Shown: positions 1,900-20,446, counted from the first letter of the stretch. The stretch: DNA of 24,614 nucleotides from Candidatus Iainarchaeum sp. (GCA_038736825.1 JAVYME010000017.1:1-24614), one strand, 5' to 3'. Notes: generated by a model from the letters alone, not told the origin. Numbers and translations: made by a program.

Positions 1900-2489
1900 T
1901 TTTTTGCATTTAAAGCAATAAAAGCAACAAGCGCTCCAAGCAATGCTGTAACAAATTGCATTGCACTCATTGGCAGTAACAGTGCAGCAGGCAACATTGA
2001 AAAAGAGAATAGTGTGAAAGCAGAAACCCCAATTACAAGGGCTTTGGCTGTTGCCCCAATCAAGGCTTTAAAAGCAAAACTTTCATTGAAGTGCTTGAAA
2101 GAAAAAGCCAGCACTGCATTTCCAGCCCAAATGAATGGAACCAACAACAACAAATAAGGCGTGAGAGAGCCAAAAAGTGCTCCTGCGCTTAAAACCCCAA
2201 AAACCGGGAACAAGATTACTGAAAGCAAGTGCTTCAATTCAAGCCTTGTCGCAGCAATTATTATTGTTGCATTCACTAGTGTTCCAAGCAACAATTGTTG
2301 CGAGGAATGGCTTAAAATGAATGGCAGCATAAAGCAAAACAATGCATAAAGCAATGCTTCAACCCATTGCTTGTAGCGGGAAAGCCATTCAGAATTGAAA
2401 GCGTTTTTGAACCCTTGCATGTATATAAGAAAAGCGCCTGCCTTTAAATATTTAATGGCTGGCAAAAAAGGATTTGGGTTTTCCTTCAC
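1896..2489 (-). CDS. small polytopic membrane protein, function unknown (possibly transporter or S-component-like)
   Basis: 197 aa with about 5-6 hydrophobic helices. Its GTG start overlaps the hppA stop (GTGA), suggesting translational coupling. No diagnostic motif; an alternative ATG start lies near 2420. Confidence 0.5.
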   Translation of the reverse strand: MKENPNPFLPAIKYLKAGAFLIYMQGFKNAFNSEWLSRYKQWVEALLYALFCFMLPFILSHSSQQLLLGTLVNATIIIAATRLELKHLLSVILFPVFGVLSAGALFGSLTPYLLLLVPFIWAGNAVLAFSFKHFNESFAFKALIGATAKALVIGVSAFTLFSFSMLPAALLLPMSAMQFVTALLGALVAFIALNAKN

Positions 2490-4720
2490 GCAAATATTGG
2501 AAACACTGGGAACAGTGAAGCAAACAATATGGAAATCACAGACATTAGTTTCACCAAAATGTCAAGGCTTGGCCCGACAGTGTCCTTTAACGGGTCTCCC
2601 ACGGTGTCACCTACAACGCTTGAAACATGGGCTGGAGAGCCTTTTCCCCCATAATTGCCGTCTTCAATGTATTTTTTTGCGTTGTCCAGTGCGCCTCCCA
2701 TGTTTCCGCAATAAACTGCGAGTTGCATGCAAGAGAACAATGTTGCCAGCAAAAAGCCTGCGAGCGCAAACCTTCCAAAAATAAATCCAATGGTGAAAGG
2801 CAGTATTAGTGCAAAGGCAACAGGCAAAACCAGTTTTTTTAAGGCGCTCTTAGAGGTAATGGCAATGCATTTGTTGAAATCCGCTTCCTGTGTGCCTTTT
2901 AGTATGCCCGGCTTTTCCTTGAACTGCCTTCTAATTTCGTGAATCATTTTGTCCGCAGTGTCACTTACAGCCCTTATAAGCATTGCTGAAAACACGTATG
3001 GAATCATTGCACCCAAAAACATTGCAGCAATAATTGAACCTCCAAATCGCGGGTCAGCGCTTAAAACAGTCACTTGCGGTATTGTAACCTCTGTTGCAGA
3101 ACCAATAGCGCTCCAAAGGAATGCAACAATTAAGGCAAGAGCGGCAAATGCAGCAGAACCAATTGCAAAGCCTTTTCCAATTGCTGCAGTAGTGTTTCCT
3201 ATTGCATCCAGCCTGTCAGTTCTTCTCCTAACCTCTTTTGGCAAATTGGAGCCTTGCGCTATGCCGCCAGCATTATCCGCTATTGGGCCATAACTGTCAA
3301 TGCTTACATTCATTCCCACAAAGGAAAGCATTCCCATTGCCCCATACGCTATGCCCAAAAGCCCTGCAAGCGAATAACACAATACAATTGAAACAGCCAC
3401 AACAATGCCTGGCACTAGAGTGGAATGCATTCCAACCGCCATGCCATGCGTTATTCCTGTGGCAGGGCCAGTGGCAACACTTTTAGTGAGTTCTTTCACT
3501 GGCTTGAAATCTGAAGAAGTATAGTATTCTGAAATGAAACCAATTATTACGCCGGCAATCACTCCAATCACGATTGTCCAAAAAAGATTGAAATTGGATG
3601 GAGACAATATTAGGGTTATAATGCCGGCAAATACTATTGTCAGGAAAGCGCTAAGCCTGGCACCGTTTGTGAGCGCGCTTTGCAAGCCTTCCTCTTTGCT
3701 TTTTTTAGCCACAACAAAAATTATTCCCAATAGGCTTGCAATGATTCCGCCTGAAACAATCAGTAAAGGCATTAAAATGGTTGCCCAAAAAGCGCTCAAA
3801 CTGATTTCAGAGCCCAAGCCGATTTTTTGCAAAATGTAGAGAATGCTTTCATTGCTTCTTCCCACATACACGTACAAAATTATTACAAGCACTGAAATTA
3901 TTGCGCCAACAAATGATTCCAAGAGGTCAGCGCCAAGACCGCCTACATCGCCCACATTGTCTCCAACATTGTCTGCAATTGTTGCAGGATTCCTTGGATC
4001 GTCCTCTGGCAAGTGCTCTTCGGCTTTTCCCACAATGTCTGCGCCCATGTCTGCGGCTTTAGTGTAAATGCCTCCTCCAACCCTGTCAAACAAGGCAACA
4101 AGCGATGCCCCCATGGAATAAGCGCTCACAATCAATGCTGCCTTGATGAAAGTAAGGTTTCTTCCAAGAAAATCGCTCACTATTGGCACAGCCTTGTTTT
4201 CAATGTGCAAAATGGATGGATCGAATTCGTGAGCAAAAAGGAAAATTACAAGGGTAAGGCCTGCCACTGCAAGCCCTGCAGCAGCCATTCCATTGATTGA
4301 ACCGCCCACTAGCGCTATATTGAGGGCTTTTTTTGAATCCTTTCTTGCAGCGTTTGCCACGCGGGCGTTTGACATGGTGGCGCCATGCATTCCAATAAAG
4401 CCAGCGCTCATTGCAACTGTTCCGCCAATCAGGAATGCAATTGCAACCTCCCAGTAAAACAAGCCCCAGAGAATGAGTGCAATAACAACCAGTACAACTG
4501 CGAAAACTTTTACCTCTTCAACCATGAAAGTCCAAGCGCCCTCGCGAATGTATTTTTGCAATTGCCTCATTCTTTCTGTGCCAGCATCCTGTTTTGCAAC
4601 ATAACGGTTGAATTGCAAAACAGAAAAAACAGCGATAACAGAAACAATAGCGGATACAAAAATCAATTCGAACAATGGAATCACCCCGAAAAATTTCAAA
4701 AAAACGGAACAACTGAACAA
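2486..4720 (-). CDS. hppA: membrane-bound ion-translocating pyrophosphatase (M-PPase), K+-dependent type
   Basis: 744 aa, multi-TM. Diagnostic motifs GGGIYTKAADMGADIVGK, DNVGDNVGD and GDTVGDPLKDT are present. GNTTAAIGKG carries Ala rather than Lys, the signature of the K+-dependent subfamily. The start is TTG at 4720, with no in-frame ATG before TM1, so the exact N-terminus is uncertain. Confidence 0.95.
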   Translation of the reverse strand: MFSCSVFLKFFGVIPLFELIFVSAIVSVIAVFSVLQFNRYVAKQDAGTERMRQLQKYIREGAWTFMVEEVKVFAVVLVVIALILWGLFYWEVAIAFLIGGTVAMSAGFIGMHGATMSNARVANAARKDSKKALNIALVGGSINGMAAAGLAVAGLTLVIFLFAHEFDPSILHIENKAVPIVSDFLGRNLTFIKAALIVSAYSMGASLVALFDRVGGGIYTKAADMGADIVGKAEEHLPEDDPRNPATIADNVGDNVGDVGGLGADLLESFVGAIISVLVIILYVYVGRSNESILYILQKIGLGSEISLSAFWATILMPLLIVSGGIIASLLGIIFVVAKKSKEEGLQSALTNGARLSAFLTIVFAGIITLILSPSNFNLFWTIVIGVIAGVIIGFISEYYTSSDFKPVKELTKSVATGPATGITHGMAVGMHSTLVPGIVVAVSIVLCYSLAGLLGIAYGAMGMLSFVGMNVSIDSYGPIADNAGGIAQGSNLPKEVRRRTDRLDAIGNTTAAIGKGFAIGSAAFAALALIVAFLWSAIGSATEVTIPQVTVLSADPRFGGSIIAAMFLGAMIPYVFSAMLIRAVSDTADKMIHEIRRQFKEKPGILKGTQEADFNKCIAITSKSALKKLVLPVAFALILPFTIGFIFGRFALAGFLLATLFSCMQLAVYCGNMGGALDNAKKYIEDGNYGGKGSPAHVSSVVGDTVGDPLKDTVGPSLDILVKLMSVISILFASLFPVFPIFA

Positions 4721-4740
4721 AGAAATGATTGCCTTAAAAC

Positions 4741-4750
4741 AATTTAAATT
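4741..4750 (-). promoter_or_regulatory. TATA-box candidate (palindromic AATTTAAATT) for hppA
   Basis: About 28 nt upstream of the hppA start at 4720, in the 196-nt divergent intergenic region. Confidence 0.35.
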
Positions 4751-4887
4751 TCTTTGTTTTTTTGAGAAAAACCGTTTTCAGGGGAAAAAAAGCATCTTTT
4801 TTTAAAAGAATTATATAAAAAATTGCAATCAACTGCAGTTTTAATCGCAATGACTTTCTTTGAAAAAATTTGCAGTAAAAGCGCACA

Positions 4888-4895
4888 TTTAAATA
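4888..4895 (+). promoter_or_regulatory. TATA-box candidate (TTTAAATA) for the hydrogenase operon
   Basis: 29 nt upstream of ATG 4917, which implies a leaderless or very short-leader transcript. The same motif and spacing recur at other first genes. Confidence 0.4.
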
Positions 4896-4916
4896 TTTTT
4901 GCGGTGTTTTCAGATT

Positions 4917-5330
4917 ATGGCTGGCAAGATTATTGCCTTGAACGAGTTCGGCGAAGAACAGAAAAAAAAGGGCTTTATTGGAAAAAAAAAGCTCAAAGAA
5001 ATAGCCGCTAAAACCTGTGTGCCTGAAAGCGAGGCTTTTTCTGCAGCAACCTTTTATTCTTTTTTGTCTTTGGAGAAAAGGGCAAAGCATTCAATCCTGG
5101 TTTGCAATTGCCCTTCAGAGCAATTAAAAGGCTCTGAAAAACTGCTAAAAGCGCTTGAAAAAAAACTAAAAGTTAAAAGAGGGCATTCAACAAAAGACAA
5201 AAAATTTTATTTGGGTGAAACCTCTTGCATTGGGCTTTGCGATAAGGCTCCCGCAATGCTTGTGGACGGCAAACCCTATTCGCAAGTGACAATTGAAAAA
5301 GCAAAAAAACTGCTGGAAAAACTAAAATAG
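4917..5330 (+). CDS. NuoE/HydC-like thioredoxin-fold [2Fe-2S] subunit with an atypical first Cys pair
   Basis: 137 aa from ATG 4917; the track ORF starts at an upstream TTG 4899. The C-terminal motif 'ETSCIGLCDKAPAMLVDG' matches NuoE/HndA/HydC. The upstream motif reads 'LVCNCPSEQLKG' instead of the canonical C-x4-C. It sits first in an operon with NuoF-like and HydA genes. Confidence 0.8.
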   Translation: MAGKIIALNEFGEEQKKKGFIGKKKLKEIAAKTCVPESEAFSAATFYSFLSLEKRAKHSILVCNCPSEQLKGSEKLLKALEKKLKVKRGHSTKDKKFYLGETSCIGLCDKAPAMLVDGKPYSQVTIEKAKKLLEKLK

Positions 5331-5359
5331 GCATTATTGCAAAAAACCGGAGGGAATAA

Positions 5360-6481
5360 ATGAGCACTGAAAGCCTTCTCTTTGAATCCAACCTTGAAGG
5401 CTTAAGAAAAGCAATGCAAAAAAGCCCGGAAGAGATTATTGCCATAGTAAAAGAATCCGGCTTAAAAGGAAGGGGCGGCGCAGGCTTTCCAACAGGATTA
5501 AAATGGGAAACTGCAGCAAAAGCAGTCGGCGAAAAGTTTGTTTTGTGCAATGCAGACGAAGGCGAGCCCGGAACATTCAAAGACAAGCTTGTTTTGACAA
5601 AAACCCCACTCAACGTAATAGAAGGCATCATAATTGCTTGCAAAGCAGTCGGCGCAAAAAAAGCATTCATTTATTTGCGAGGAGAATACGCGCACTTGGC
5701 GCCCTCTTTAAAAAAAGCAATGAAAAAAGCCTGCTCTTTCCTTGAAAAAGAATGCATAGACTTGGAAATAGTTTTAGGGCAAGGCGCATACATTTGCGGA
5801 GACGAAACCGCAATCCTTAACTCAATCGAGGGAAAAAGGCCTGAACCAAGAAAAAAACCACCCTATCCAGCAGAAAAAGGCCTTAACGGGCAGCCCACTG
5901 TAGTCAACAATGTTGAAACCCTTGCAATGGTTCCATTGATTTTTTTGAACCGTTTTGATTCAAGAAAAAGGCTTTGCTCTCTTTCGGGCGACCTTGAAAA
6001 CCCCGGTGTTTTTGAAATAATTGAAGGAAAGCAGGCAGGCAAACTGGTTGAACTGGCTAAACCAATAGGCAAACCGAAAGCGCTTTGTTTTGGAGCCTCG
6101 GGTGGAATAATTCCCTTTGATCCCTGCATGGAATTAACAGAAGCAAACGTTAAAGAAAAAGGCGCTTTTGCTGGCACTTGGTCCATTATTGTTGTCAACG
6201 AAAAGCACTCCATAGTTGAATTGTGCAAGAGCACTCAACACTTTTTTGTCCACGAATCTTGCGGTTATTGTGCGCCTTGCAGGGAAGGCAATCTCAGAAT
6301 GCTGGAATTGCTTGAAAAAATTTGCAAGGGAAAGGGTACAAAAAAAGACTTGCAAAAATTGCGCGAGCTTTCAGGGCTTTTAAGCGCTTCCTGTTTTTGC
6401 GCTCTTGGAAAATCAGCCCCATTGCATGTTTCCACAGCCTTGAAACATTTTTCAAAGGAGTTTGAGGAAAAATGCATGTGA
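5360..6481 (+). CDS. NuoF/HydB-like NAD(P)H- and FMN-binding [4Fe-4S] subunit, core only
   Basis: Motifs present: GRGGAGFPTGLKW, CNADEGEPGTFKD, YICGDETAILNSIEG, NNVETL, and the N3-type cluster ESCGYCAPCREG...CFCALG. SD GGAGGG at 5349-5354. The stop overlaps the hydA start by 10 nt. Confidence 0.9.
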   Translation: MSTESLLFESNLEGLRKAMQKSPEEIIAIVKESGLKGRGGAGFPTGLKWETAAKAVGEKFVLCNADEGEPGTFKDKLVLTKTPLNVIEGIIIACKAVGAKKAFIYLRGEYAHLAPSLKKAMKKACSFLEKECIDLEIVLGQGAYICGDETAILNSIEGKRPEPRKKPPYPAEKGLNGQPTVVNNVETLAMVPLIFLNRFDSRKRLCSLSGDLENPGVFEIIEGKQAGKLVELAKPIGKPKALCFGASGGIIPFDPCMELTEANVKEKGAFAGTWSIIVVNEKHSIVELCKSTQHFFVHESCGYCAPCREGNLRMLELLEKICKGKGTKKDLQKLRELSGLLSASCFCALGKSAPLHVSTALKHFSKEFEEKCM

Positions 6482-8163
6482 CAATTGACGGCAAATACAT
6501 TGAATGCATGCAAGGCGAAACAATATTGCAGGCAGCCAAAAAAAACAATATTGACATTCCCACTCTTTGCTATCACTCAATGCTGGAACCAGAGGGAAGG
6601 TGCAGGGTTTGCCTTGTTGAAGCCAACGGCAAAACCACAACCGCTTGTGACACAATAGTGCAAGACGGAATGAACATTATAACAGACTCTGAAAAGCTTC
6701 GCTTAATGAGAAAGGATGCAGTGGACTTGATTGCGTCCAGTGTTTCGCCTGAAGTCCTGCAAAGCGAAAACGAGCTCACAAAAGCAATGCAAAAAGTCGG
6801 GTTAAAAAAACCATCCTTCAAAAACTACAAAAAACTGGAAAAAGACAATTCAAGCAATGCAGTTTGGCGGGACAACAACAAATGCATTTCCTGCGGGCGC
6901 TGCGTGCAATCCTGCTCCAAAGTGCAATCAGTCAACGCAATAGCCTTTTCCGGGAGAAGCATTGAAATGCAGGTTGAAGGGGTTTTCTGCGAACAACTCT
7001 ATTGCACTAAATGCGTTTCATGCGGGCAATGCTCGCTTGTTTGCCCCACAAACGCCATAAGCGAAGCAAACTCGCTTTCAATAGTGGAAAAGCACCTTAA
7101 AGAAAAAGGAAAAATAAAAATAGCGCAAATAGCCCCTTCAGTGCGGGTTTCCTTGGGCGAATGCCTTGGCATTCCACCCGGAAAAAACCTTGAACGACAG
7201 ATTGCAGCCGGCTTAAAAAAAGCAGGCTTTGATTTTGTTTTTGACACAAATTTTGGCGCAGACCTCACAATAGTGGAAGAATCATCAGAATTCATTGAAA
7301 GAATTAGAGAAGGAAAAAAACCGCTTTTCACGAGCTGTTGCCCTGCATGGATAGACTATTGCTGCCAATTCCATCCAGAACTGATTCCAAGCCTTTCCAC
7401 TGCAAAGTCACCGCAATTAATGCTTGCAGCAATGACAAAAACCCATTTTGCAGAAAAAAAAGGCTTTTCGCCAAAAAAAATCTTCAATGTTTCAATAATG
7501 CCTTGCACTGCAAAGAAAAAAGAAGCCTCTTTAAAACAAATGGGGCGCAAAGGCTTGCGCGACATAGATGCGGTTTTAACCACGCGAGAGTTGGGCGAAC
7601 TATTCAAAAGAAAACACATTGACCTTGAAAAAATCCAGCCAGCCGACTTTGATGACCCTCTCGGGGAAAGCACTGGCGCAGGAGCAATCTTTGGAGCCAC
7701 AGGCGGCGTAATGGAGGCAGCCCTTCGAACAGCCTATTTCCTTTTGGAAGGCAAAGACCTTGAAAGAGACGAAATCCCTCAAGTGAGAGGCGAAAAAGGA
7801 ATAAAAGAATTTGAAATAATGGTGGGCGGAAAAAAGTTCAAGACAGCAGTGGCACACGGGCTCTCGAATGCTGAAAAACTCATTGAAAGGCTCAAAAAAG
7901 GCGAAGAATTCGATTTCATTGAAATAATGGCTTGCCCTGGAGGCTGCATTGGCGGCGGAGGCCAGCCCAAGCCAACAAACTGGAATCTTATCCAGGAAAG
8001 AACTAAAGCGATTTACTCCATAGACAGCAGTAAAAGCGTTAGAAAAAGCCATCACAACCAGTCAGTGAAAAAATTGTATGAAGAATTCCTTGGAAAACCG
8101 GGTTCAAAAAAGGCAAAACAATTGCTTCACAGAACCTATCCAAAAAAAGGCAAAACATTTTGA
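6472..8163 (+). CDS. hydA: [FeFe]-hydrogenase catalytic subunit, CpI-like architecture
   Basis: All three H-cluster motifs are present: TSCCPAW, MPCTAKKKE and EIMACPGGCIGGGGQP. Also present are FGADLTIVEE, AKSPQ and GATGGVMEAALR. The N-terminal plant-type [2Fe-2S] has Cys33/44/47/59. There are two ferredoxin-like [4Fe-4S] motifs, CISCGRCVQSC and CVSCGQCSLVCP. SD AAGGAG at 6455-6460. Confidence 0.93.
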   Translation: MHVTIDGKYIECMQGETILQAAKKNNIDIPTLCYHSMLEPEGRCRVCLVEANGKTTTACDTIVQDGMNIITDSEKLRLMRKDAVDLIASSVSPEVLQSENELTKAMQKVGLKKPSFKNYKKLEKDNSSNAVWRDNNKCISCGRCVQSCSKVQSVNAIAFSGRSIEMQVEGVFCEQLYCTKCVSCGQCSLVCPTNAISEANSLSIVEKHLKEKGKIKIAQIAPSVRVSLGECLGIPPGKNLERQIAAGLKKAGFDFVFDTNFGADLTIVEESSEFIERIREGKKPLFTSCCPAWIDYCCQFHPELIPSLSTAKSPQLMLAAMTKTHFAEKKGFSPKKIFNVSIMPCTAKKKEASLKQMGRKGLRDIDAVLTTRELGELFKRKHIDLEKIQPADFDDPLGESTGAGAIFGATGGVMEAALRTAYFLLEGKDLERDEIPQVRGEKGIKEFEIMVGGKKFKTAVAHGLSNAEKLIERLKKGEEFDFIEIMACPGGCIGGGGQPKPTNWNLIQERTKAIYSIDSSKSVRKSHHNQSVKKLYEEFLGKPGSKKAKQLLHRTYPKKGKTF

Positions 8164-8187
8164 AAAAATTCCTTTTCTGGGATTAAA

Positions 8188-8195
8188 TTTAAATA
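8188..8195 (+). promoter_or_regulatory. TATA-box candidate (TTTAAATA) for the small Cys4 gene
   Basis: 31 nt upstream of ATG 8219. Confidence 0.35.
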
Positions 8196-8218
8196 CTAGT
8201 TTATTGTATATTTTAAAC

Positions 8219-8500
8219 ATGCCTTTACAAAGCGTAGTGACTGCCGTCAAAAAGAACCCTTTGCCTCAAAAACAAATAGTTTACCAAAAACCAGAGCCAA
8301 GGTTCATAGACGCAGACGAAGTTGTAACACAAAAACAAGAGGAATCACCCAACCAGCCAAGAATCGGGGACTGGAAGTCATGCCAGTACTTTAAAGAAGT
8401 CAATGGAAAAAAGTACTGCGTTCACTTCATGTCCTTCTGTGCCATGGAAAAATGCAATGGAACACTGCCATTGCTTGGCCAGAAAATGAGAAGGCGCTGA
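8219..8500 (+). CDS. small Cys4 protein, unknown function
   Basis: 93 aa from ATG 8219, with TATA-like TTTAAATA at 8188-8195. The longer track ORF from 8078 would overlap hydA. The C-terminal half carries C-x11-C-x6-C-x4-C (CQYFKEVNGKKYCVHFMSFCAMEKC). Confidence 0.45.
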   Translation: MPLQSVVTAVKKNPLPQKQIVYQKPEPRFIDADEVVTQKQEESPNQPRIGDWKSCQYFKEVNGKKYCVHFMSFCAMEKCNGTLPLLGQKMRRR

Positions 8501-8507
8501 TTCTGAA

Positions 8508-8522
8508 CCCGCAATGCGCGGG
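8508..8522 (+). terminator. GC-rich hairpin (CCCGC-AATGC-GCGGG) after the small Cys4 gene, followed by T-rich sequence
   Basis: 5-bp GC stem 8 nt after the stop at 8500, in an otherwise AT-rich spacer between convergent genes. TATTTTT lies about 20 nt downstream. Confidence 0.3.
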
Positions 8523-8584
8523 AGAAAAGTGCAAAAAAAAGTATTTTTGAGTGGACACTGGCAAAAAAAGCAATTAAAAAAAAT

Positions 8585-9400
8585 TCAAAGCCTTTTCAGT
8601 TTTTCCCTTTCCTCTGCCTCTGCTCTTTTTTCAGCAATCTCTTTTTTTTCCAGTGCTCTCTGGTTTTTCCTTTGAGAAGAAAAAAACAGTGAAATTGCAA
8701 ACAAGATTATTCCAAAAAACAAAAAGCTTACGCCCCATAGGGCTGAAAGAGAAAAAAAGCCAGTGACAACGCTTTGAGCGAAAGGCAAAAGCGCATTCAA
8801 ATTGTTTTCAGAAAGAGTTTTTTGCAAAAAACCAAAAAAAATTTGCGGTGTCGCCAAGTAGAAAACCAAAACCAGAAAACCTGAAAGCGCAAAAGAAAAA
8901 CCAGCCCATTTCATTTTTGAGTTAACCCCGCTTGCAACAATCAATATGACAAGCAAGAACACCAAGGCTAGCAGCAAAGACATTGATTTTGCCACAAGCA
9001 TTGTTTGAATTGCAACTTTTGCTTTTCCAAAAAAAGAAAGCAATTGTTGCGGCAAAACAGAGGAAACAGAAAAGGAGGCTTTTTGGGAAAAAACCGCAGG
9101 CAAGCCAAGCTCTATCTCTTTTGCTTTCGGTTCACGCAAGTAATGGACAATTGCATCAACAAAGCCATCCCCAAAAGCCTTTATAGCGTTTGGTCCGACA
9201 AATTCAATCAATTCCTTGGCACTCAAGCCATTGTTTTCCGCTGAAAGCTCAAAAAAAACCTGATAGGCATTGAAATCAGTTGCTTTGGCTTTAAGGAAAT
9301 CCGCATTCAATGCAGTGGATTCAAATGCTTGTGCAACCAAGAAAAAGCCAAAAAACAGGGAAAAAAAAACCGACATGAAGAACAAAAAAATTACGCGCAT
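8585..9400 (-). CDS. membrane protein with N-terminal signal/anchor, multiple predicted C-terminal TM helices and a charged coiled tail
   Basis: 271-aa ATG ORF. MRVIFLFFMSVFFSLFFGFFLVAQA is signal-like. An extracytoplasmic segment of about 110 aa is followed by a hydrophobic block and the tail QRKNQRALEKKEIAEKRAEAEEREKLKRL. Confidence 0.55.
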   Translation of the reverse strand: MRVIFLFFMSVFFSLFFGFFLVAQAFESTALNADFLKAKATDFNAYQVFFELSAENNGLSAKELIEFVGPNAIKAFGDGFVDAIVHYLREPKAKEIELGLPAVFSQKASFSVSSVLPQQLLSFFGKAKVAIQTMLVAKSMSLLLALVFLLVILIVASGVNSKMKWAGFSFALSGFLVLVFYLATPQIFFGFLQKTLSENNLNALLPFAQSVVTGFFSLSALWGVSFLFFGIILFAISLFFSSQRKNQRALEKKEIAEKRAEAEEREKLKRL

Positions 9401-9485
9401 ATTAAACGATTAATAAAATGGCAAGGGGCTTTTTAATATTTTCTGTTGGTAGTTTGTTTTGTTACAGGAGAAAAGGGGTGAATTC

Positions 9486-10808
9486 ATGAAAAGGAAAAAA
9501 GTCATAATAATGGGTGCCGCTGGAAGGGACTTCCATAATTTCAATGTTTTTTTCCGCAACAAAAAAGAATTTGAAGTTGTTGCATTCACTGCAACCCAGA
9601 TTCCTGACATAGAAGGAAGGCTTTACCCGCCAAAGCTTGCCGGAAAACTTTACCCAAAAGGCATTCCAATAAAACCAGAGGAAAAACTTGAAGCGCTTAT
9701 AAGAGAAAAAAAGGCAGAAATTGTTGTTTTCTCTTACTCTGACATAAAATATGAAGCCTTAATGCAAAAATCTGCAATTGCAAACGGGGCTGGCGCTGAC
9801 TTCTGGCTATTGGGTTCTGAAAGCACAATGCTGGAATCCAAAAAGCCGGTTATAGCGGTGTGCGCTGTAAGAACAGGCTGCGGCAAAAGCCAGACAACAA
9901 GGAGAGTTTGCGAAATACTCAAAAAAATGGGCAAAAGAATTGCAGTAATAAGGCATCCAATGCCTTACGGCAACCTTGCAGAACAAGAAGTGCAAAGGTT
10001 TGAAAAAATAGAAGATCTTGCCAAGCACAAGTGCACAATAGAGGAAATGGAAGAATACGAGCCCCACATAGTGCGCGGCAACCTTGTGTTCGCAGGCGCC
10101 GACTATGAAAAAATTTTAAGAGCAGCAGAAAAAGAAGCGGATGTCATCTTATGGGACGGCGGAAACAACGATTACTCCTTCTACAAGGCAGATTTATACA
10201 TAACGGTTGCTGATCCGCATCGAGCAGGACACGAAAAAACCTATTACCCAAGCGGAGTAAACGTTGCCCTTGCCAACGCCTTTGTAATAAACAAAGAAGA
10301 CACAGCAGAACCAGAAAAAATAAGGGAAGTTGAAAAAAACCTTTCAGAAATGAACCCAAAAGCAAAAATAATCCACTGCAATTCCCCCATAAGCGTTGAA
10401 AAACCAGAACTAATAACCGGAAAAAGGGTTTTGGTTATAGAAGACGGCCCAACACTAACCCACGGCGAAATGAAATACGGTGCCGGCATAGTGGCAGCAA
10501 AAAAATTCAAAGCAAAAGAAATCGTTGACCCGAGGCCTTTCCTGGTTGGCAAACTAAAAGAAACCTTTGAGCACTATCCAGGCATAGGCACACTCCTTCC
10601 AGCAATGGGTTACGGGGAAAAACAAGTGAAAGACTTAGAAGCAACAATAAACTCTTGCAATTGCGATTCAGTGATAATTGCCACTCCAATAGACCTTTCA
10701 AGAGTCATCAAAATAAGAAAACCGTTTACAAGGGTAACATACGAGCTAGAGGAAAAAACACAACCAGGCTTAAAGGAATTAATAGAAAAAGCGCTAAAAA
10801 GCGCTTAA
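9486..10808 (+). CDS. COG2403-type P-loop protein (predicted GTPase / cyclic 2,3-diphosphoglycerate synthetase-like)
   Basis: ATG 9486 is preceded by GGGGTGA at 9475-9481. The N-terminus reads KVIIMGAAGRDFHNFN, and there is a P-loop-like AVRTGCGKSQTTR and DGGNND. Length and layout match my memory of this archaeal family. The track start at 9459 is an upstream TTG. Confidence 0.6.
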   Translation: MKRKKVIIMGAAGRDFHNFNVFFRNKKEFEVVAFTATQIPDIEGRLYPPKLAGKLYPKGIPIKPEEKLEALIREKKAEIVVFSYSDIKYEALMQKSAIANGAGADFWLLGSESTMLESKKPVIAVCAVRTGCGKSQTTRRVCEILKKMGKRIAVIRHPMPYGNLAEQEVQRFEKIEDLAKHKCTIEEMEEYEPHIVRGNLVFAGADYEKILRAAEKEADVILWDGGNNDYSFYKADLYITVADPHRAGHEKTYYPSGVNVALANAFVINKEDTAEPEKIREVEKNLSEMNPKAKIIHCNSPISVEKPELITGKRVLVIEDGPTLTHGEMKYGAGIVAAKKFKAKEIVDPRPFLVGKLKETFEHYPGIGTLLPAMGYGEKQVKDLEATINSCNCDSVIIATPIDLSRVIKIRKPFTRVTYELEEKTQPGLKELIEKALKSA

Positions 10809-14035: not shown

Positions 14036-14800
14036 ATGGATTTTTTTCAAGCTCTGGTTTTAGGGTTGGTTCAAGGGCTTGTTGAATGGCTTCCCTTGAG
14101 CTCTCAAGGGCAAGTGATGGCAATCTCAATGTCTTTTTTCGGGATAACTCCTGCAGAAGCAATTCGCATTGCGGTTTTTTTGCACATTGGCACTTTTTTC
14201 GCTGCACTTTATTATTTCAGAAAAGAAGCGATTCAAATAATTTTCTTTAAAGAAAAGCCCCTTGCAAAATTCCTCTTTATAGCCCTTCTTTCCACGCTTG
14301 TTACCGGCATTCCCTGTTATTTTTTGCTCAAAACAGTGCTTTCAGAATTCAATCCTGCAATAATCCTTATCATAATCTCTGCCTTGCTTTTTATCATGGG
14401 TTTGATTCAATGGAGAAAAAAATTCCAGAAAAAAGCCCGGTTAAGCAAAAAAAACGCTTTTTTTTTGGGTTTGGGGCAAGGCTTTGCAGTGTTGCCTGGA
14501 ATCAGCAGGAGTGGCATTACAACAAGCACTCTTCTCTTTGAAGGCTTTTCTCCAGAGCAAGCCTTTCGCATTTCGTTTTTGTTATCCATTCCAAGCGTTT
14601 TCCTTGCAGACATTGCTTTTGGTTTCACAGAAGGCTTTTCCTTTTCTCCGGAAGCGGTTTTTGCTTTGGCAATTGCGGCAATAACCGGCTTTCTATCCAT
14701 TTCCGCTCTTTTAAAAATAGCCAAAAAAATCAATTTCTCTTTTTTCTGCTTTTTTTTTGGAGCAATTTATGCATTGCTCGCAGTTTCCTGGCTGTTATGA
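14036..14800 (+). CDS. uppP: undecaprenyl-diphosphate phosphatase (BacA/UppP family)
   Basis: Both family motifs are present, 'GLVEWLPLSSQGQ' and 'LPGISRSGITTSTLL'. 254 aa, polytopic. Confidence 0.85.
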   Translation: MDFFQALVLGLVQGLVEWLPLSSQGQVMAISMSFFGITPAEAIRIAVFLHIGTFFAALYYFRKEAIQIIFFKEKPLAKFLFIALLSTLVTGIPCYFLLKTVLSEFNPAIILIIISALLFIMGLIQWRKKFQKKARLSKKNAFFLGLGQGFAVLPGISRSGITTSTLLFEGFSPEQAFRISFLLSIPSVFLADIAFGFTEGFSFSPEAVFALAIAAITGFLSISALLKIAKKINFSFFCFFFGAIYALLAVSWLL

Positions 14801-14810
14801 CTAAAGAAAG

Positions 14811-15488
14811 TCATTTTTCAGGCTTTACAGGCTTCCTCACAACCTTTTCAAGCCTGCCAGCCACAAAAATTTTTATCAAAAAATATTTTTTGGCTCCAGC
14901 GGTCACCCTTTCAACTGCATAGCGCACCCTGAAAGTATGGTAAAGTCTTTTTCCAAGCGTTTTATAAGCAAGATAATTGGACAATACTTGCATCAAGTCT
15001 GGGTCGCGGACAAAATTTGAAACAATATAAGCGCTCCCGCCGGCTATAGGGATTGCGCCTATAAGCATTGCCTCAACACTGTGCAATTGTGCAGAGCGCT
15101 TGTACTCTTCAGCGCTAGTGGTTTTTGAAATGCTCCTGCGAAATTTCGCTCTAGCCCTTGCACTCACAGTATAAACAGGTCTTGCCATGGAACCAAAAAA
15201 AGGCGTTATCACTGGAATGCCGGCTAGTGCAAGGTGGGCGCCAAAGCCGGCAAGGAAATCGCGGGCATTCCCTGAAGAGATTTTTTCCCTGAGTTCTGCG
15301 GCTTTTTCTGGATTTATTTGTCCCTCGCTCAAGCTCCAGTCAATGGCATTGGAGAGAAACTTCAATGCCTTTGCATGGTATTTTGCGGAAACCCAGCGCC
15401 CAGTGCGCTTTATAAAGCACGGCTTTCTCTCTCGCTTTTTTTCAGTTTGCCCTAACCGCTTTTCTCTTGCTCTTTTCTTCCAAGCCAC
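14811..15488 (-). CDS. hypothetical protein with a basic N-terminus and two hydrophobic segments (ORFan)
   Basis: 225-aa ORF with a GTG start, so the start is uncertain. The segments FLAGFGAHLALAGIPVITPFFG and MLIGAIPIAGGSAYIV look membrane-embedded or re-entrant. No family recognised. Confidence 0.42.
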   Translation of the reverse strand: MAWKKRAREKRLGQTEKKRERKPCFIKRTGRWVSAKYHAKALKFLSNAIDWSLSEGQINPEKAAELREKISSGNARDFLAGFGAHLALAGIPVITPFFGSMARPVYTVSARARAKFRRSISKTTSAEEYKRSAQLHSVEAMLIGAIPIAGGSAYIVSNFVRDPDLMQVLSNYLAYKTLGKRLYHTFRVRYAVERVTAGAKKYFLIKIFVAGRLEKVVRKPVKPEK

Positions 15489-16168: not shown

Positions 16169-16790
16169 AAGGCAAAGCCCATTTCTTGCAAGCGCTTGCA
16201 AAAGCCTTTTCTGTTATTGCTTTCAAGTCAATCTTGCTTTCTTCTTCGAGCACTCTTTCAAGGCGTGCGCGAGTGCTTGGATGCTTTGGCCCCAAGACAT
16301 CGCACATTTCTGGTCCTTTTGAGAGCTCAAAAGTGCCAATTTTTTCAGCAATCCTTGTGGTTTCCAGTTTGTTGAAACACAAAAGCGGTCTTGCAATTGT
16401 TTTTCCGGAAGCCCTGCTAATGACAGCCATGTTTGCAAGCGTTTGGCTTGAAACCTGTCCAATGCTGTCACCAGTGCAAATAAAATCGCATTTTTCTTTT
16501 TCAGCCACTTTTTCCGCTATTTTGAAAAACAGTCTTCTCTGCAAAACAAAATAATAAGCGTTATCGCATTTTTCTGCAATCTCTTTTAATGCTTGCGATA
16601 AATCCAAGACAATGAATTTTTTGAATTTTAGTTTTTTTGCAATCTTGCGGGCTTTTTCAATTGATTCTGTGCCAGCAAACTCCTTGTTTGAAAAATGCAA
16701 TGCTATTACTTCTGCTTTTTTTGACGCAAGCCAGCCAGCTACAGGCGAGTCAATGCCTCCGCTTAAAAGCAGCAAAGCACGGCTTTTCAT
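16155..16790 (-). CDS. ThiI-like PP-loop ATP pyrophosphatase domain, stand-alone (no THUMP or N-terminal ferredoxin-like domain)
   Basis: [14 protein letters not shown] is the PP-loop. [40 protein letters not shown] and [15 protein letters not shown] align with the C-terminal half of ThiI as I remember it. The ATG overlaps the dnaJ stop (ATGA). Confidence 0.72.
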
Positions 16791-17962
16791 GAACCAAACC
16801 CTTTTCTTATTTTTTCCTGAAACCTTTCAAAAAAGCCTTTTCTTTTCTTGCTGGTTTCCTCTTCCTTCAACAATTGCTCGAACAATTCCCTTTCTTTTTT
16901 GGAAAGCGATTTCGGGGTTTCCAGGATAACTTTAACGAATTCGTCGCCTTTGCCGATTGAATTGAGTTTTTGAATTCCTTTTTCCTTTAACCTGAAAATT
17001 GTCCCGCTCTGGGTTCCAGGCGGAATTTTCAGTTTTGCCATTCCATACAATGTTGGCACTTCAACTTCCGCTCCAAGTGCTGCCTCTGCAAAGCTTATAG
17101 GGATTTCGCAATAAACATCAAAATTGTCGCGCTTGAAAATATCGTGTGGTTCAACAAATATCACCACATAGATGTCGCCTGCCGGCCCGCCTTTTATTCC
17201 AGCATTGCCTTGTCCTGCCAAGCGCAAATAGTTTCCAGAGTCAATGCCTGCTGGCACTTTCACTTTCACTTTCTTTTTTTCCTTTTTAATGCCTTCGCCC
17301 TTGCATTCACTGCAAGGGTTTTTTGAAAACTTTCCAGTGCCCCCGCACTTGTGACAGGTTGTGATTGTTTGGAAAAAGCCAAAGGGTGTCCTGCTTGACC
17401 TTGAAACTTGGCCTGCACCGCCACAATTGGGGCAAGTTGAAATGTCTTTTTCGCTTTTATAGCCTTTGCCGTTGCATTCATTGCAGGCAATTGTTCTTTC
17501 AATTAAAATTTCTTTTTCTGTTCCAAATGCTGCTTCTTCAAAGGAAATTGAAAGAGTGAACTTTATGTCAGAGCCTTTTTTGGGGCTTTGCTTTCTTGTT
17601 GTTCTGGTTCCAAATTCTTCTCCGAAAAAGTCTCCGAAACCGCTTCTGGAAAAGGCATTGAAAATGTCTGAAAAGTCAAAATCAAAGGATGAAAAGCCTT
17701 CAAAGCCTTCTGTTCCCCTAAAGCCCTGGAATCCCTTAAAGGCATCATAGCCGTGACCGAACTGGTCATAGGCTTGCCTTTTTTGCTTGTCGGAAAGCAC
17801 TGAATATGCTTCCTGGATTTCTTTGAATTTTTCTTCTGCGTCTTTTTCGCTGCTGATGTCTGGATGGTATTTTTTTGCGAGTTCTTTGTAGGCTCGCTTT
17901 ATTTCGTCTTCGGAAGCGTTTCTTCCAACGCCTAAAATGTCATAATAGTCGCGCTTTTGCAT
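16787..17962 (-). CDS. dnaJ: type I Hsp40 co-chaperone DnaJ
   Basis: J-domain DYYDILGV...KKYHPD, a G/F-rich linker, and four CxxCxGxG zinc-finger repeats ([32 protein letters not shown]). Confidence 0.95.
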
Positions 17963-17981
17963 GCAATTCCTTCACTCGGGC

Positions 17982-19859
17982 TTATTTTTTGTCTTCGTCT
18001 TCCATTTTAAAGTCTGCGTCCACGACTTTGCCTTTTTTTTCCTTCTTTTTTGCAGAACCGCTTTCTTCTGGTTCATTGCTTTCACTAGTGTCAGGTTCAG
18101 TGTTTTGTTGTCCTGCGCGCTTGTAAAGCTCTGAGGAAGCCGCCTGCATTTCTTTTTCCAGTTCTTGTTTTGCGCTTTTCACTGCCTTTGCATTATTGTC
18201 CTTCAAAGCGTTTTTTAATGCCTCTGTTTTTTGCACGATTTTTTGCCTTGCAGTTTCTGGAATTTTGTCTCCCAATTCTGAAAGCATTTTTTCAGAGGCA
18301 TAAACCATTGCCTCTGCCTCGTTCATTTCTTGCGCTTCTTCCATGCGTTTTCTGTCCTCTTCAGCGTGCTCTTCAGCCTCTCTTTTCATGCGCTCTATTT
18401 CCTCCTTGTCAAGTTTTTGCGATGCAACGATTTTAATGCTTTGCTCTTTTCCTGTGCCCAAGTCTTTTGCTGTGACATGGACTATGCCGTTTGCGTCAAT
18501 GTCAAAGGTGACTTCAATTTGTGGAACACCCCTTGGTGCTGGTGGAATCCCAATCAACTGGAACCTGCCAAGTTCCTTGTTGTCTTTTGCCATTGGGCGT
18601 TCGCCTTGCAATACGTGAATGTCCACTGCTGTCTGGTTGTCTGCGGCAGTGGAAAAAACCTGGGATTTTTTTGTTGGAATTGTTGTGTTGCGTTCAATGA
18701 GTTTTGTCATTACTCCGCCCAAGGTTTCAATTCCAAGGCTTAAAGGTGTAACATCAAGCAATAATACATCCTTTACTTCTCCGCTTAAGACTCCTGCCTG
18801 GATTGCCGCCCCCATTGCAACGCACTCCATTGGGTCAACGCCTCTTTCAGGCTTTACGCCTGTAATGTGTTCCACAAATTTTTGGATTGCAGGCATTCTT
18901 GTTGGTCCGCCAACCAGTATCACTTTGTCTATGTCTCCGGGTGTCATTTTGGCGTCAGCAATTGCTTGCATTACTGGTTTTTCGCATTTTTTAATTATTG
19001 GGTCGATTAATTGTTCGAGTTTTGCTCTTGTCAGTTTGTAGTTGAAGTGCTTGGGTTCGCCTTTGACAGAGGCCAAATATGGCAGGTTGATGTCTGTTTC
19101 AAGCACTGTGCTTAACTCTATTTTTGCCCTTTCAGCCGCCTCTCTCAAGCGCTCCATTGCGGTTTTGTCCTTTGAAATGTCCGCTCCCTCTTTTTTCTTG
19201 AATTCTGCCACCAAAAATTCAACTATAACGCGGTCCATGTCTGTGCCGCCCAGTTGAGTGTCTCCAGAAGTGCTTTTGACTTCAAAAACGCCTTGCCCGA
19301 ACTCCATTATTGTCACATCAAGTGTTCCGCCGCCAAAATCGAAAACCATTGTTTTGTGCTCTTTTTCCTTTTTGTCCAATCCATAGGCGAGAGCAGCAGC
19401 TGTCGGTTCATTAATAATCCTTATTACCTCCAAGCCAGCGATTTCTCCAGCGTCCTTTGTTGCCTGCCTTTGGTTGTCGTCAAAATAGGCTGGCACAGTG
19501 ATAACTGCCTTTTCCACTTTATCGCCTAAAAACTCTTCAGCATCCCTTTTTATTTTTTGCAAAATGAAGGCGGAAATCTGTTGTGGAGTGTATTCTTTTC
19601 CAAACACTTTATACTTGAAGTCAGTGCCCATTTTCCTTTTTGCAGCAGTAATCGTGCCTTCTGGATTGTTTACTGCCTGCCTTTTAGCCGGCTCTCCAAC
19701 CAACAACTGTCCGTCTTTTGTGAATGCAACAACGCTTGGAAAGCTCTTTCCATACAAGGAAGTGCCTTCAGCGCTTGGAATAATTTTAGGCTTTCCTGCC
19801 TCTAAAACTGCAGCAGCACTATTGCTGGTTCCCAAATCAATTCCAATCACTTTACTCAT
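17982..19859 (-). CDS. dnaK: Hsp70 chaperone DnaK
   Basis: [62 protein letters not shown] and a full substrate-binding domain. The start overlaps the grpE stop (ATGA). Confidence 0.97.
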
Positions 19860-20446
19860 TTGGCATCACCTTCTTTCTCTTCCAAAACCTCTTCTTTTTT
19901 TTCTTGCGCTTCAACAACATTCAATTTTACTTTTGCAGGCCTTAAAACAAGGCCATTGAACATATAGCCTTTCTGGCATTCTTCCAAAATCTCGTTTTCT
20001 TTTTTTTCTTTCACGCTTTCCCTTAAAACGCATTCCATGCAGTTTGGGTCAAATTCTTTGCATTGAATTTCTGAAACCCCGTTTTTTTGAAATGCAGACC
20101 ATAATTGTTCGAAAAGCGCTTTAAGGCCCTTGTCTTCAGGGCATTTGTTTAAGGCTTCGCGCACTGAGTCAAGCACTGGAAGGAAACAGGAAAGCACTTC
20201 TGCTTTAGCTCGCTGTTCTTTCATGGCTGTTTCTTTGTCTCTGCGTTTCATGGCGTTTTCAAAGTCTGCTTGAACCCTTTGAAGCAAACCCTTTAATTCC
20301 TCAAACTCTCTGCCTCTTTTTTCGATTTCGCCTTGCAAGTCCACTATTTGCTTTTTCAATGGTTCAAGCAATTCCAAGCCAGCCATTGCAGCCCTTTCAG
20401 CGCTTTTCGGGCTTTTTTTTCCTTTAATTCGTTCCCTTGCAGCCAT
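19856..20446 (-). CDS. grpE: nucleotide exchange factor GrpE
   Basis: N-terminal coiled coil, [21 protein letters not shown] and [17 protein letters not shown] match GrpE. It is the first gene of the grpE-dnaK-dnaJ operon. Confidence 0.85.

Follow-up and report, generated by a model that had tools for sequence, protein, structure and literature searches.

The 24,614-nucleotide contig of Candidatus Iainarchaeum sp. analyzed here (GCA_038736825.1, JAVYME010000017.1:1-24614; hereafter the window, meaning this whole stretch) carries at positions 4917-8163 a three-gene [FeFe]-hydrogenase operon, hydCBA, and raises the question of whether the encoded enzyme bifurcates electrons, making H2 from NADH and reduced ferredoxin together, or is a plain NADH-linked hydrogenase. 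Trimeric group A3 hydrogenases encoded by hydA, nuoF-like and nuoE-like genes have been described in Woesearchaeota and related DPANN archaea (Huang 2021, PMC8421398), and a later survey, in which 130 archaeal genomes from nine phyla had [FeFe]-hydrogenases, gave A3 HydABC as the most widespread archaeal type, occurring in at least six DPANN phyla with 'some Iainarchaeota' named (Greening 2024, PMC11216029). The window operon is a further member of this published class, its protein is already annotated in GenBank, and its existence adds little; a first-pass annotation made from the sequence had treated an archaeal three-subunit DPANN hydrogenase as a rarity, a view overtaken by the 2021 and 2024 papers. 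What we add is that the DPANN-type 'A3' hydrogenase looks, from its predicted cofactor sites, to be non-bifurcating, which is a testable correction. Our literature search found no paper on non-bifurcating DPANN [FeFe]-hydrogenases, which does not disprove an earlier mention.

Group A3 gene organization of the window operon

The complete module of NuoE-like, NuoF-like and HydA proteins proposed in the first-pass annotation is present as three open reading frames with Pfam support:

4917-5330, + strand, hydC (NuoE-like), 137 amino acids (aa) from its ATG; PF01257, E=3e-33
5360-6481, + strand, hydB (NuoF-like), 373 aa; PF01512, E=5e-45, and PF10589, E=3e-26
6472-8163, + strand, hydA, 563 aa; Fer2_4, two Fer4, Fe_hyd_lg_C (E=4e-92) and Fe_hyd_SSU (E=1e-20)

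The genes are contiguous and co-directional and form one operon. HydDB defines group A3 by a hydA gene adjoining nuoF-like (HydB) and nuoE-like (HydC) genes, and this is the organization found here.

HydB is a bare NuoF core

HydB begins about 20 residues ahead of the flavin mononucleotide (FMN) domain and amounts to a bare NuoF core, with an FMN/NAD(H) site (GRGGAGFPTG at aa 37-46, NADEGEPGTFKD at aa 64-75 and GQGAYICGDETA at aa 140-151) and one N3-type [4Fe-4S] cluster (C301, C304, C307 and C347). Pfam searches and alignments revealed no other cluster domains in it: there is no N-terminal [2Fe-2S], no C-terminal pair of [4Fe-4S] clusters and no CxxCxxCxxxC motif. It aligns to residues 146-526 of the 599 of A. 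woodii HydB and to residues 161-552 of the 626 of T. maritima HydB. In a MAFFT alignment it is unextended at both ends, where bacterial HydB have 17-48 aa plus 69-77 aa Cys-rich extensions; the six bacterial HydB aligned have a thioredoxin-like N-terminal domain, and their 69-77-aa C-terminal extensions contain 10-11 cysteines. All three subunits of the T. maritima, A. woodii and T. kivui HydABC complexes (7p5h, 7q4v and 8a6t) are homologous to those of the window, but window HydB is shorter than theirs by ∼130-160 N-terminal and ∼70 C-terminal residues (clusters B1, B3 and B4).

An AlphaFold2 model of HydB (predicted local distance difference test 89.6, predicted template-modeling score 0.89) superposes on the cores of NuoF, HydB and NfnB with query-normalised template-modeling (TM) scores of 0.87-0.92 in Foldseek, and the corresponding TMt values are 0.80-0.82 to Aquifex NuoF versus 0.55-0.62 to bifurcating HydB. 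The window proteins share their domains with complex I NuoEF (Aquifex NuoEF, Thermus Nqo1/2), HydB having FMN plus N3 and HydC the NuoE fold, although HydB is ∼45-70 aa shorter than NuoF, with a trimmed N-terminus and trimmed SLBB loops, and is coupled to an H-cluster subunit where NuoF is coupled to NuoG and the membrane arm.

Three HydB positions near the NADH/FMN site and the SLBB domain have been found diagnostic for bifurcation, the non-bifurcating states being T/S and K/S/A at the GxFxD positions, a Tyr near the FMN, and no GGPSG (Losey 2020, PMC7311640). Window HydB has T..K in EPGTFKD (within NADEGEPGTFKD) where bifurcating enzymes have A/E..M (GAFMD), Y in GQGAYICGDE where they have F (GAGAF), and FGASGG in place of GGPSG; Aquifex NuoF has the same T..K and Y states. 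The T. maritima, A. woodii and T. kivui enzymes have A..M, F and GGPSG, together with a protomer-linking cluster, A4, that the window enzyme lacks (see below).

These states are not peculiar to the window. Among 120 short HydB homologues (276-393 aa), 112 have TxK and 110 have Y, and none has GGPSG or a ferredoxin motif. The homologues with a named source are mostly from Diapherotrites, Altiarchaeales, Woesearchaeota or Nanoarchaeota. At the level of 50%-identity representatives, this short lineage reduces to a handful of clusters, and apart from that it lies at the same distance from NuoF-type as from HydB-type proteins. As bacterial comparators we used 26 hydCBA loci recovered by a HydA search of genome contigs (HydA 39-45% identity), and the long HydB adjoining hydA in these loci show the opposite pattern, with AxM and GGPSG in all 26, and F and a ferredoxin motif in 25 each.

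One relative departs from the common length: P0325 (528 aa), which is 47% identical to window HydB, has a 160-residue N-terminal extension and may be a HydC-HydB fusion like S. aciditrophicus HydB.

HydA lacks the histidine-ligated cluster

Group A [FeFe]-hydrogenases are defined by the motifs P1 TSCCPxW, P2 MPCxxKxxE and P3 ExMACxxGCxxGGGQP. All three signatures, as first annotated, were located in the translated HydA sequence (TSCCPAW at aa 287-293, MPCTAKKKE at aa 343-351 and EIMACPGGCIGGGGQP at aa 484-499), together with the four H-cluster cysteines and a PF02906 match (E=4e-92). The N-terminal [2Fe-2S] cluster has ligands C33, C44, C47 and C59, and two ferredoxin-type [4Fe-4S] clusters follow at C138-148 and C181-191; the H-domain cysteines are C289/C290, C345, C488 and C492, and a small-subunit domain is fused to it. 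Sixteen iron-sulfur ligand cysteines (four for the [2Fe-2S], eight ferredoxin-type, and C289, C345, C488 and C492) are invariant in 121 aligned HydA. The second P1 cysteine, C290, is kept by the window and by every one of the 11 clade members, all of which read TSCCP, and is a Ser in many relatives; P1 reads TSCSP and not TSCCP in 58 of the 121, the functional A. woodii HydA1 (7q4v_A) among them.

HydA passes TIGR02512 (487 bits; cut-off 406), and its top NCBIfam model is NF040763 (NADH-dependent [FeFe] hydrogenase, group A6), where it scores 710 bits, under the cut-off of 765; in line with this, GenBank names the protein only '[FeFe] hydrogenase, group A'. Its best match in the Protein Data Bank (PDB) is the bifurcating T. 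kivui HydA1 (8a6t_A, E=9e-154). Alignment to 8a6t_A and 7q4v_A places one cluster site of those proteins on a linker of the window protein:

6727-6789, + strand, HydA linker (aa 86-106, no His or Cys) replacing the His-ligated [4Fe-4S] site

Here SVSPEVLQSENELT of the window aligns with HNADCFECDKNLHC of T. kivui HydA1 and with the equivalent site of A. woodii HydA1, so that all four ligands of the His-ligated cluster are gone; nor does HydA match PF10588. The (Cys)3His [4Fe-4S] cluster (FS4C) that marks the M3, or CpI, type between the [2Fe-2S] and the two [4Fe-4S] domains is therefore absent. The clostridial CpI-like domain order first ascribed to HydA holds for the [2Fe-2S], the two [4Fe-4S] clusters, the H-domain with P1-P3 and the fused small-subunit region, all shared with C. 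pasteurianum CpI, but not for FS4C; moreover, CpI is monomeric and ferredoxin-dependent, whereas the window operon encodes NuoEF-type partners, and window HydA scores 531 on NF040762 against a cut-off of 900.

Loss of this cluster is common among the relatives of HydA, its motif H-x3-C-x2-C-x5-C being missing in 52 of the 120 top homologues. In neighbor-joining (NJ) trees of 121 sequences with 30 bootstraps, these 52 form one split (27/30 bootstraps) apart from the 69 sequences that keep the motif (68 homologues and the T. kivui reference). The His-ligated cluster joins two protomers in T. maritima HydABC, where it is A4, and is thought to lead to ferredoxin in CpI (PMC9499530). It is not located on the path of electrons from HydB to the H-cluster.

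HydC of the Iainarchaeota clade

HydC has a NuoE-like thioredoxin fold, and its best PDB match is T. kivui HydC (8a6t_C, E=2e-21). Its cysteine pattern is C63-N-C65...C104-x3-C108 compared with the canonical Cx4C...CxxxC, the canonical second Cys aligning to a Glu with a Cys at +2 instead. Only the Iainarchaeota clade has the CNC(P) form, and within this clade further ligands are lost (Cys1 in P0250, P0251 and P0258; Cys3 in P0251), while Cx4C is retained in more distant HydC relatives and in loci L045 and L046. The HydC cluster (C1, N1a-like) is considered important for bifurcation (Furlan et al., PMC9499530).

A predicted linear electron path

Every ligand needed for one linear path of electrons between NAD(P)H and the H-cluster is present. 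As predicted from these ligands, electrons would pass from NAD(P)H to FMN and the N3-type [4Fe-4S] of HydB, then to the [2Fe-2S] and the two ferredoxin-type [4Fe-4S] clusters of HydA, and finally to the H-cluster. Conversely, every cofactor site tied by the literature to flavin-based bifurcation or to ferredoxin entry is missing or degenerate, namely the HydB N-terminal [2Fe-2S], the HydB C-terminal bridge domain with its pair of [4Fe-4S] clusters, the HydA His-ligated [4Fe-4S] and, with a displaced ligand, the HydC cluster.

Because of the HydB domain loss, the residue signatures, and the contrast that the literature draws between the two types of enzyme, we infer that the window enzyme is probably a ferredoxin-independent, reversible NAD(P)H:H+ oxidoreductase that does not bifurcate, like S. 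wolfei Hyd1ABC. Non-bifurcating HydB/BfuB homologues have no clusters B2-B5, oxidize NADH and do not interact with ferredoxin (PMC9304861), and all characterized bifurcating [FeFe]-hydrogenases have the HydB C-terminal B3/B4 domain, which the non-bifurcating ones lack (PMC9499530). Of the features by which the Bfu family is recognized (Schut 2022; Furlan 2022), window HydB has neither the C-terminal 4Fe-4S domain IPR017896 (B3/B4), nor the N-terminal [2Fe-2S], nor the residues A/E..M, F and GGPSG, with the short HydB as a group having TxK in 112/120 where the long ones have AxM in 26/26.

S. wolfei Hyd1ABC consists likewise of HydA with NuoF-like and NuoE-like partners. Its HydB and that of S. 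aciditrophicus HydAB (Losey 2017, 2020) resemble window HydB in having no N-terminal [2Fe-2S], no C-terminal cluster domain and the non-bifurcating residues; the sequence features of the S. wolfei type, a short HydB with FMN, one [4Fe-4S] and these residue states, are all found in the window, HydB being 407 aa in S. wolfei and 373 aa here. With HydB1 of 407 aa, the S. wolfei enzyme produces H2 to 17-40 Pa from NADH with no ferredoxin (PMC5626996), and a fungal Hyd-NuoEF complex shows similar ferredoxin-free, NADH-linked behavior (PMC13556243). The S. wolfei and S. aciditrophicus enzymes are bacterial, and the likeness is one of features and not of phylogeny; in addition, five [4Fe-4S] clusters are predicted for the S. 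wolfei enzyme, more than in the window, where the HydA His-ligated cluster is also gone.

Bifurcating or non-bifurcating

Several points weigh against a non-bifurcating enzyme. By sequence, HydB is about equidistant from bifurcating HydB and from NuoF, so that phylogeny provides no grouping with the characterized non-bifurcating enzymes. One residue assignment depends in part on the tyrosine of Nqo1, which we take to be Y180 in GAYICGEE. The position concerned, 367 of T. maritima HydB in Losey's numbering, was mapped to GAGA[F/Y] through the paper's reference to that tyrosine and not through its figure. The closest solved relative of HydA, 8a6t_A, is bifurcating, and Losey 2020 (PMC7311640) cautions that bifurcation is not fully diagnosed by counting clusters alone. 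Both papers on the DPANN class call the enzymes bifurcating, and the AlphaFold models in them are read as HydABC-like (PMC8421398, PMC11216029).

The last point is also the main rival explanation, that the operon encodes a true bifurcating or confurcating HydABC, as published for DPANN group A3, which makes H2 from NADH and reduced ferredoxin. The gene order and three subunits that define HydDB group A3, to which Greening 2024 and Huang 2021 assign bifurcation, speak for it, together with the T. kivui match and the choice of NF040763, a group A6 NADH-dependent family, as best NCBIfam model. That model is missed at 710 bits against a cut-off of 765, and the assignment rests on gene-order classification and homology, whereas every BfuB-specific feature that we tested fails: HydB has no N-terminal [2Fe-2S] and lacks the IPR017896 domain that defines BfuB (Schut 2022), and all three of its residue signatures are in the non-bifurcating state. 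In addition, HydA has no His-ligated cluster, and the cluster ligands of HydC are degenerate within the clade. We therefore consider a bifurcating enzyme unlikely.

With a non-bifurcating enzyme, a fermentative, genome-reduced cell would re-oxidize glycolytic NADH to H2, although this would be feasible only at a few tens of pascal of H2, that is, beside an H2 consumer; the reverse reaction, from H2 to NADH, would be equally possible for the enzyme. Since NADH-driven H2 release needs an H2 sink, we speculate that such an enzyme fits a symbiotic or syntrophic DPANN lifestyle. It would tie the cells to an H2-consuming host or neighbor, giving a concrete biochemical reason for dependence, and the energy metabolism and partner dependence of ultrasmall archaea would have to be modeled differently. 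If DPANN enzymes cannot bifurcate, no ferredoxin could push H2 production against higher H2 pressure, and habitats very low in H2 would be required. The window enzyme would also be a very small NADH-linked [FeFe]-hydrogenase, of ∼1,070 residues in three chains with six metal or flavin cofactor sites if HydC binds a cluster, and as such a simple test system for the role of the extra clusters in bifurcating HydABC.

A possible streamlined hydrogenase lineage

The published DPANN group A3 HydABC (PMC8421398, PMC11216029) do not differ structurally from the window enzyme: the genes are the same, the hosts are DPANN, maturases are usually absent, and no domains other than FMN, SLBB and one 4Fe-4S are described in the nuoF-like protein (Huang 2021), as in window HydB. 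Our reading differs from that of these papers in that the cofactor complement of the window and of the 120 homologues matches non-bifurcating enzymes, and the CNC variant of HydC is particular to the Iainarchaeota clade within the class. On balance, if only just, DPANN group A3 together with at least one small-genome bacterium would seem to constitute a separate streamlined lineage that is mechanistically a plain NADH:H+ oxidoreductase and not bifurcating. In this lineage HydA would lack the His-ligated cluster, HydB would be ∼370 aa long and hold a single cluster, and HydC would be short; were this so, published reconstructions with joint use of NADH and ferredoxin would be wrong.

The bacterium is represented by L046 (8492-11704 of CAZXFD010000004.1, GCA_964640635.1), which encodes a HydC of 137 aa, a HydB of 358 aa and a HydA that lacks the His-ligated cluster, on a contig that is bacterial by its genes for ribosomal protein L9, RF-1 and ComEC. 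In the NJ tree this bacterial locus, with the same streamlined operon, belongs to the group that is sister to the HydA of the Iainarchaeota clade. This implies that the operon was transferred between bacteria and archaea of the DPANN group, which agrees with the proposal of multiple acquisitions of archaeal [FeFe]-hydrogenases (Greening 2024, PMC11216029).

Archaeal origin of the operon

The HydC, HydB and HydA proteins are identical to GenBank entries MEM0360404-406, which come from a metagenome-assembled genome (MAG) of a Candidatus Diapherotrites archaeon; in NCBI taxonomy Candidatus Diapherotrites is Ca. Iainarchaeota, of the kingdom Nanobdellati (DPANN). In the HydA tree the window groups with ten other clusters at 59-73% identity (30/30 NJ bootstraps), the named ones being Diapherotrites, and the nearest HydA outside the clade is at most 52% identical; contamination by clostridial sequence was rejected on these grounds. 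The sequences in and around the operon also contain the following features:

4888-4895, + strand, TATA box TTTAAATA, 29 nucleotides (nt) before the hydC ATG, by direct sequence reading
5349-5353, + strand, GGAGG, Shine-Dalgarno-like, 6 nt ahead of the hydB ATG, inside the operon
6472-6481, + strand, 10-nt overlap of the hydB stop and the hydA start, ATGCATGTGA

No Shine-Dalgarno sequence precedes hydC in the upstream region that we read. Taken with TTTAAATA at -29, this corresponds to the archaeal leaderless type of promoter layout and suggests that the operon transcript is leaderless. Translational coupling of hydA to both partner genes, as first proposed, is plausible at one junction only, for the 10-nt hydB/hydA overlap would permit it, whereas a gap of 29 nt, with the GGAGG inside it, lies between hydC and hydB. 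TATA boxes had also been noted at about -28 to -31, and beside that of hydC there are 7/8 matches at -28 of the pyrophosphatase (PPase) gene and at -28 of the gene at 9459. Three genes with matches of at least 7/8 at -28/-29 compare with 0.2 expected against the whole-window background (P ∼0.001), although the enrichment is modest to marginal against an AT-rich intergenic background, where ∼1 is expected. Conservation across loci is the stronger argument: four orthologous loci (the window, L001, L002 and L003) have a perfect TTTAAATA at 29-31 nt before the hydC ATG and no Shine-Dalgarno sequence, and the bacterial locus L046 has TATAAT at hydC instead.

The operon is preserved in related assemblies, with the order hydC (137-140 aa), hydB (373-375 aa) and hydA (563-566 aa) kept in L001, L002, L003, L047 and L048. 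L047 (GCA_043809265.1), an independent assembly, is collinear with window positions 1945-10795 at 73-77% nucleotide identity, in the order PPase gene, opposite-strand hydCBA, 93-aa open reading frame, 278-aa open reading frame and cobW-like gene; the window contig is consequently no chimera at the operon, and that explanation was rejected. Genes for NMD3, a beta-CASP nuclease and Trm5/TYW2 lie within 8 kb of the operon in L001, L003 and L048, NMD3 and Trm5/TYW2 being used here as archaeal/eukaryotic markers. Of the ∼26 genes in the window, the one for AlaX, named AlaX-M in the first-pass annotation, gives its top scores against the archaeal AlaXM model and archaeal alanyl-tRNA synthetase (AlaRS). 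NCBIfam scans of the other window genes found no further archaeal-specific equivalog; the models matched by DnaK, DnaJ, GrpE, UppP and Nth are general or bacterial and leave the domain of life undecided.

It might be supposed that the operon lies on a bacterial fragment, such as one from the candidate phyla radiation (CPR/Patescibacteria), that was mis-binned into an archaeal MAG, or that the contig is chimeric. The bacterial type of DnaK, DnaJ, GrpE and UppP would agree with this, as would the place of L046 with its similar operon in the NJ sister group and the lack of any rRNA, tRNA (tRNA and Rfam scans) or ribosomal protein gene in the window. We nonetheless regard it as highly improbable, given the conserved TTTAAATA without a Shine-Dalgarno sequence at four loci where L046 has TATAAT, the NMD3 and Trm5/TYW2 genes near the operon in three of the related loci, the archaeal affinity of AlaX, the collinearity with L047 from the PPase gene to the cobW-like gene, and an even G+C content of 0.38-0.45 along the window. 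The archaeal, DPANN origin first suggested for the contig is thus upheld by the promoter, the independent assembly, the marker genes, AlaXM and the GenBank label; neither a bacterial or chimeric contig nor near-identity to clostridial HydA, named at the outset as outcomes that would overturn it, was found.

Maturation

The absence of hydE, hydF and hydG from the window, remarked on earlier, is borne out, with no radical-SAM or HydF-type domain in the scanned open reading frames; hydEFG genes are also lacking within ±10 kb in five related loci of the Iainarchaeota clade. Such absence is usual, since a full HydEFG set is found in only 5 of 130 archaeal genomes with [FeFe]-hydrogenases (Greening 2024, PMC11216029). 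It would agree with a hydrogenase that is unmatured in vivo, in a genome without HydEFG, its proteins having another redox role or being relics, but we think this quite improbable. All 11 members of the clade, whose overall identity to the window is 59-73%, keep the cysteines of the H-cluster and relay clusters, and the operon structure and promoter are conserved. Furthermore, archaeal [FeFe]-hydrogenases of genomes that have no maturases were shown, when matured semisynthetically, to bind the H-cluster and produce H2, and an alternative maturation pathway has been proposed (PMC11216029).

A cobW-like P-loop protein encoded at 9459-10808 was considered as a substitute for HydF and set aside, since HydF domains are absent from it and only the closest relatives show its linkage to hydA.

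Neighboring genes

The gene for this protein (+ strand), whose product is the 'COG2403' protein of the first-pass annotation, encodes a 449-aa P-loop NTPase with weak cobW/CbiA matches. It lies 1.3-5 kb downstream of hydA in L047 and L002, and is not found in L001, L003 or L048. Directly after hydA, at 8219-8500 (+ strand), is a 93-aa open reading frame with four cysteines (C-x12-C-x6-C-x4-C), no Pfam match, and a TTTAAATA of its own whose first base is 31 nt ahead of the ATG. L047 has an open reading frame in the corresponding position that is 81% identical to this one, and L002 has a homologue (14644-14877) at 42% identity; the product could be a small metal-binding protein.

On the other side of the operon, 2486-4916 holds a membrane pyrophosphatase gene (H_PPase; the best NCBIfam models are Na+-translocating) that is divergent from hydC. 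The 196-bp spacer between the two contains a TATA-like box for each direction, and the arrangement is the same in L047. Farther away, at 16787-20446 (- strand), there is a GrpE-DnaK-DnaJ cluster of bacterial type, with TIGR02349 (DnaJ_bact) and TIGR02350 (prok_dnaK) both above cut-off.

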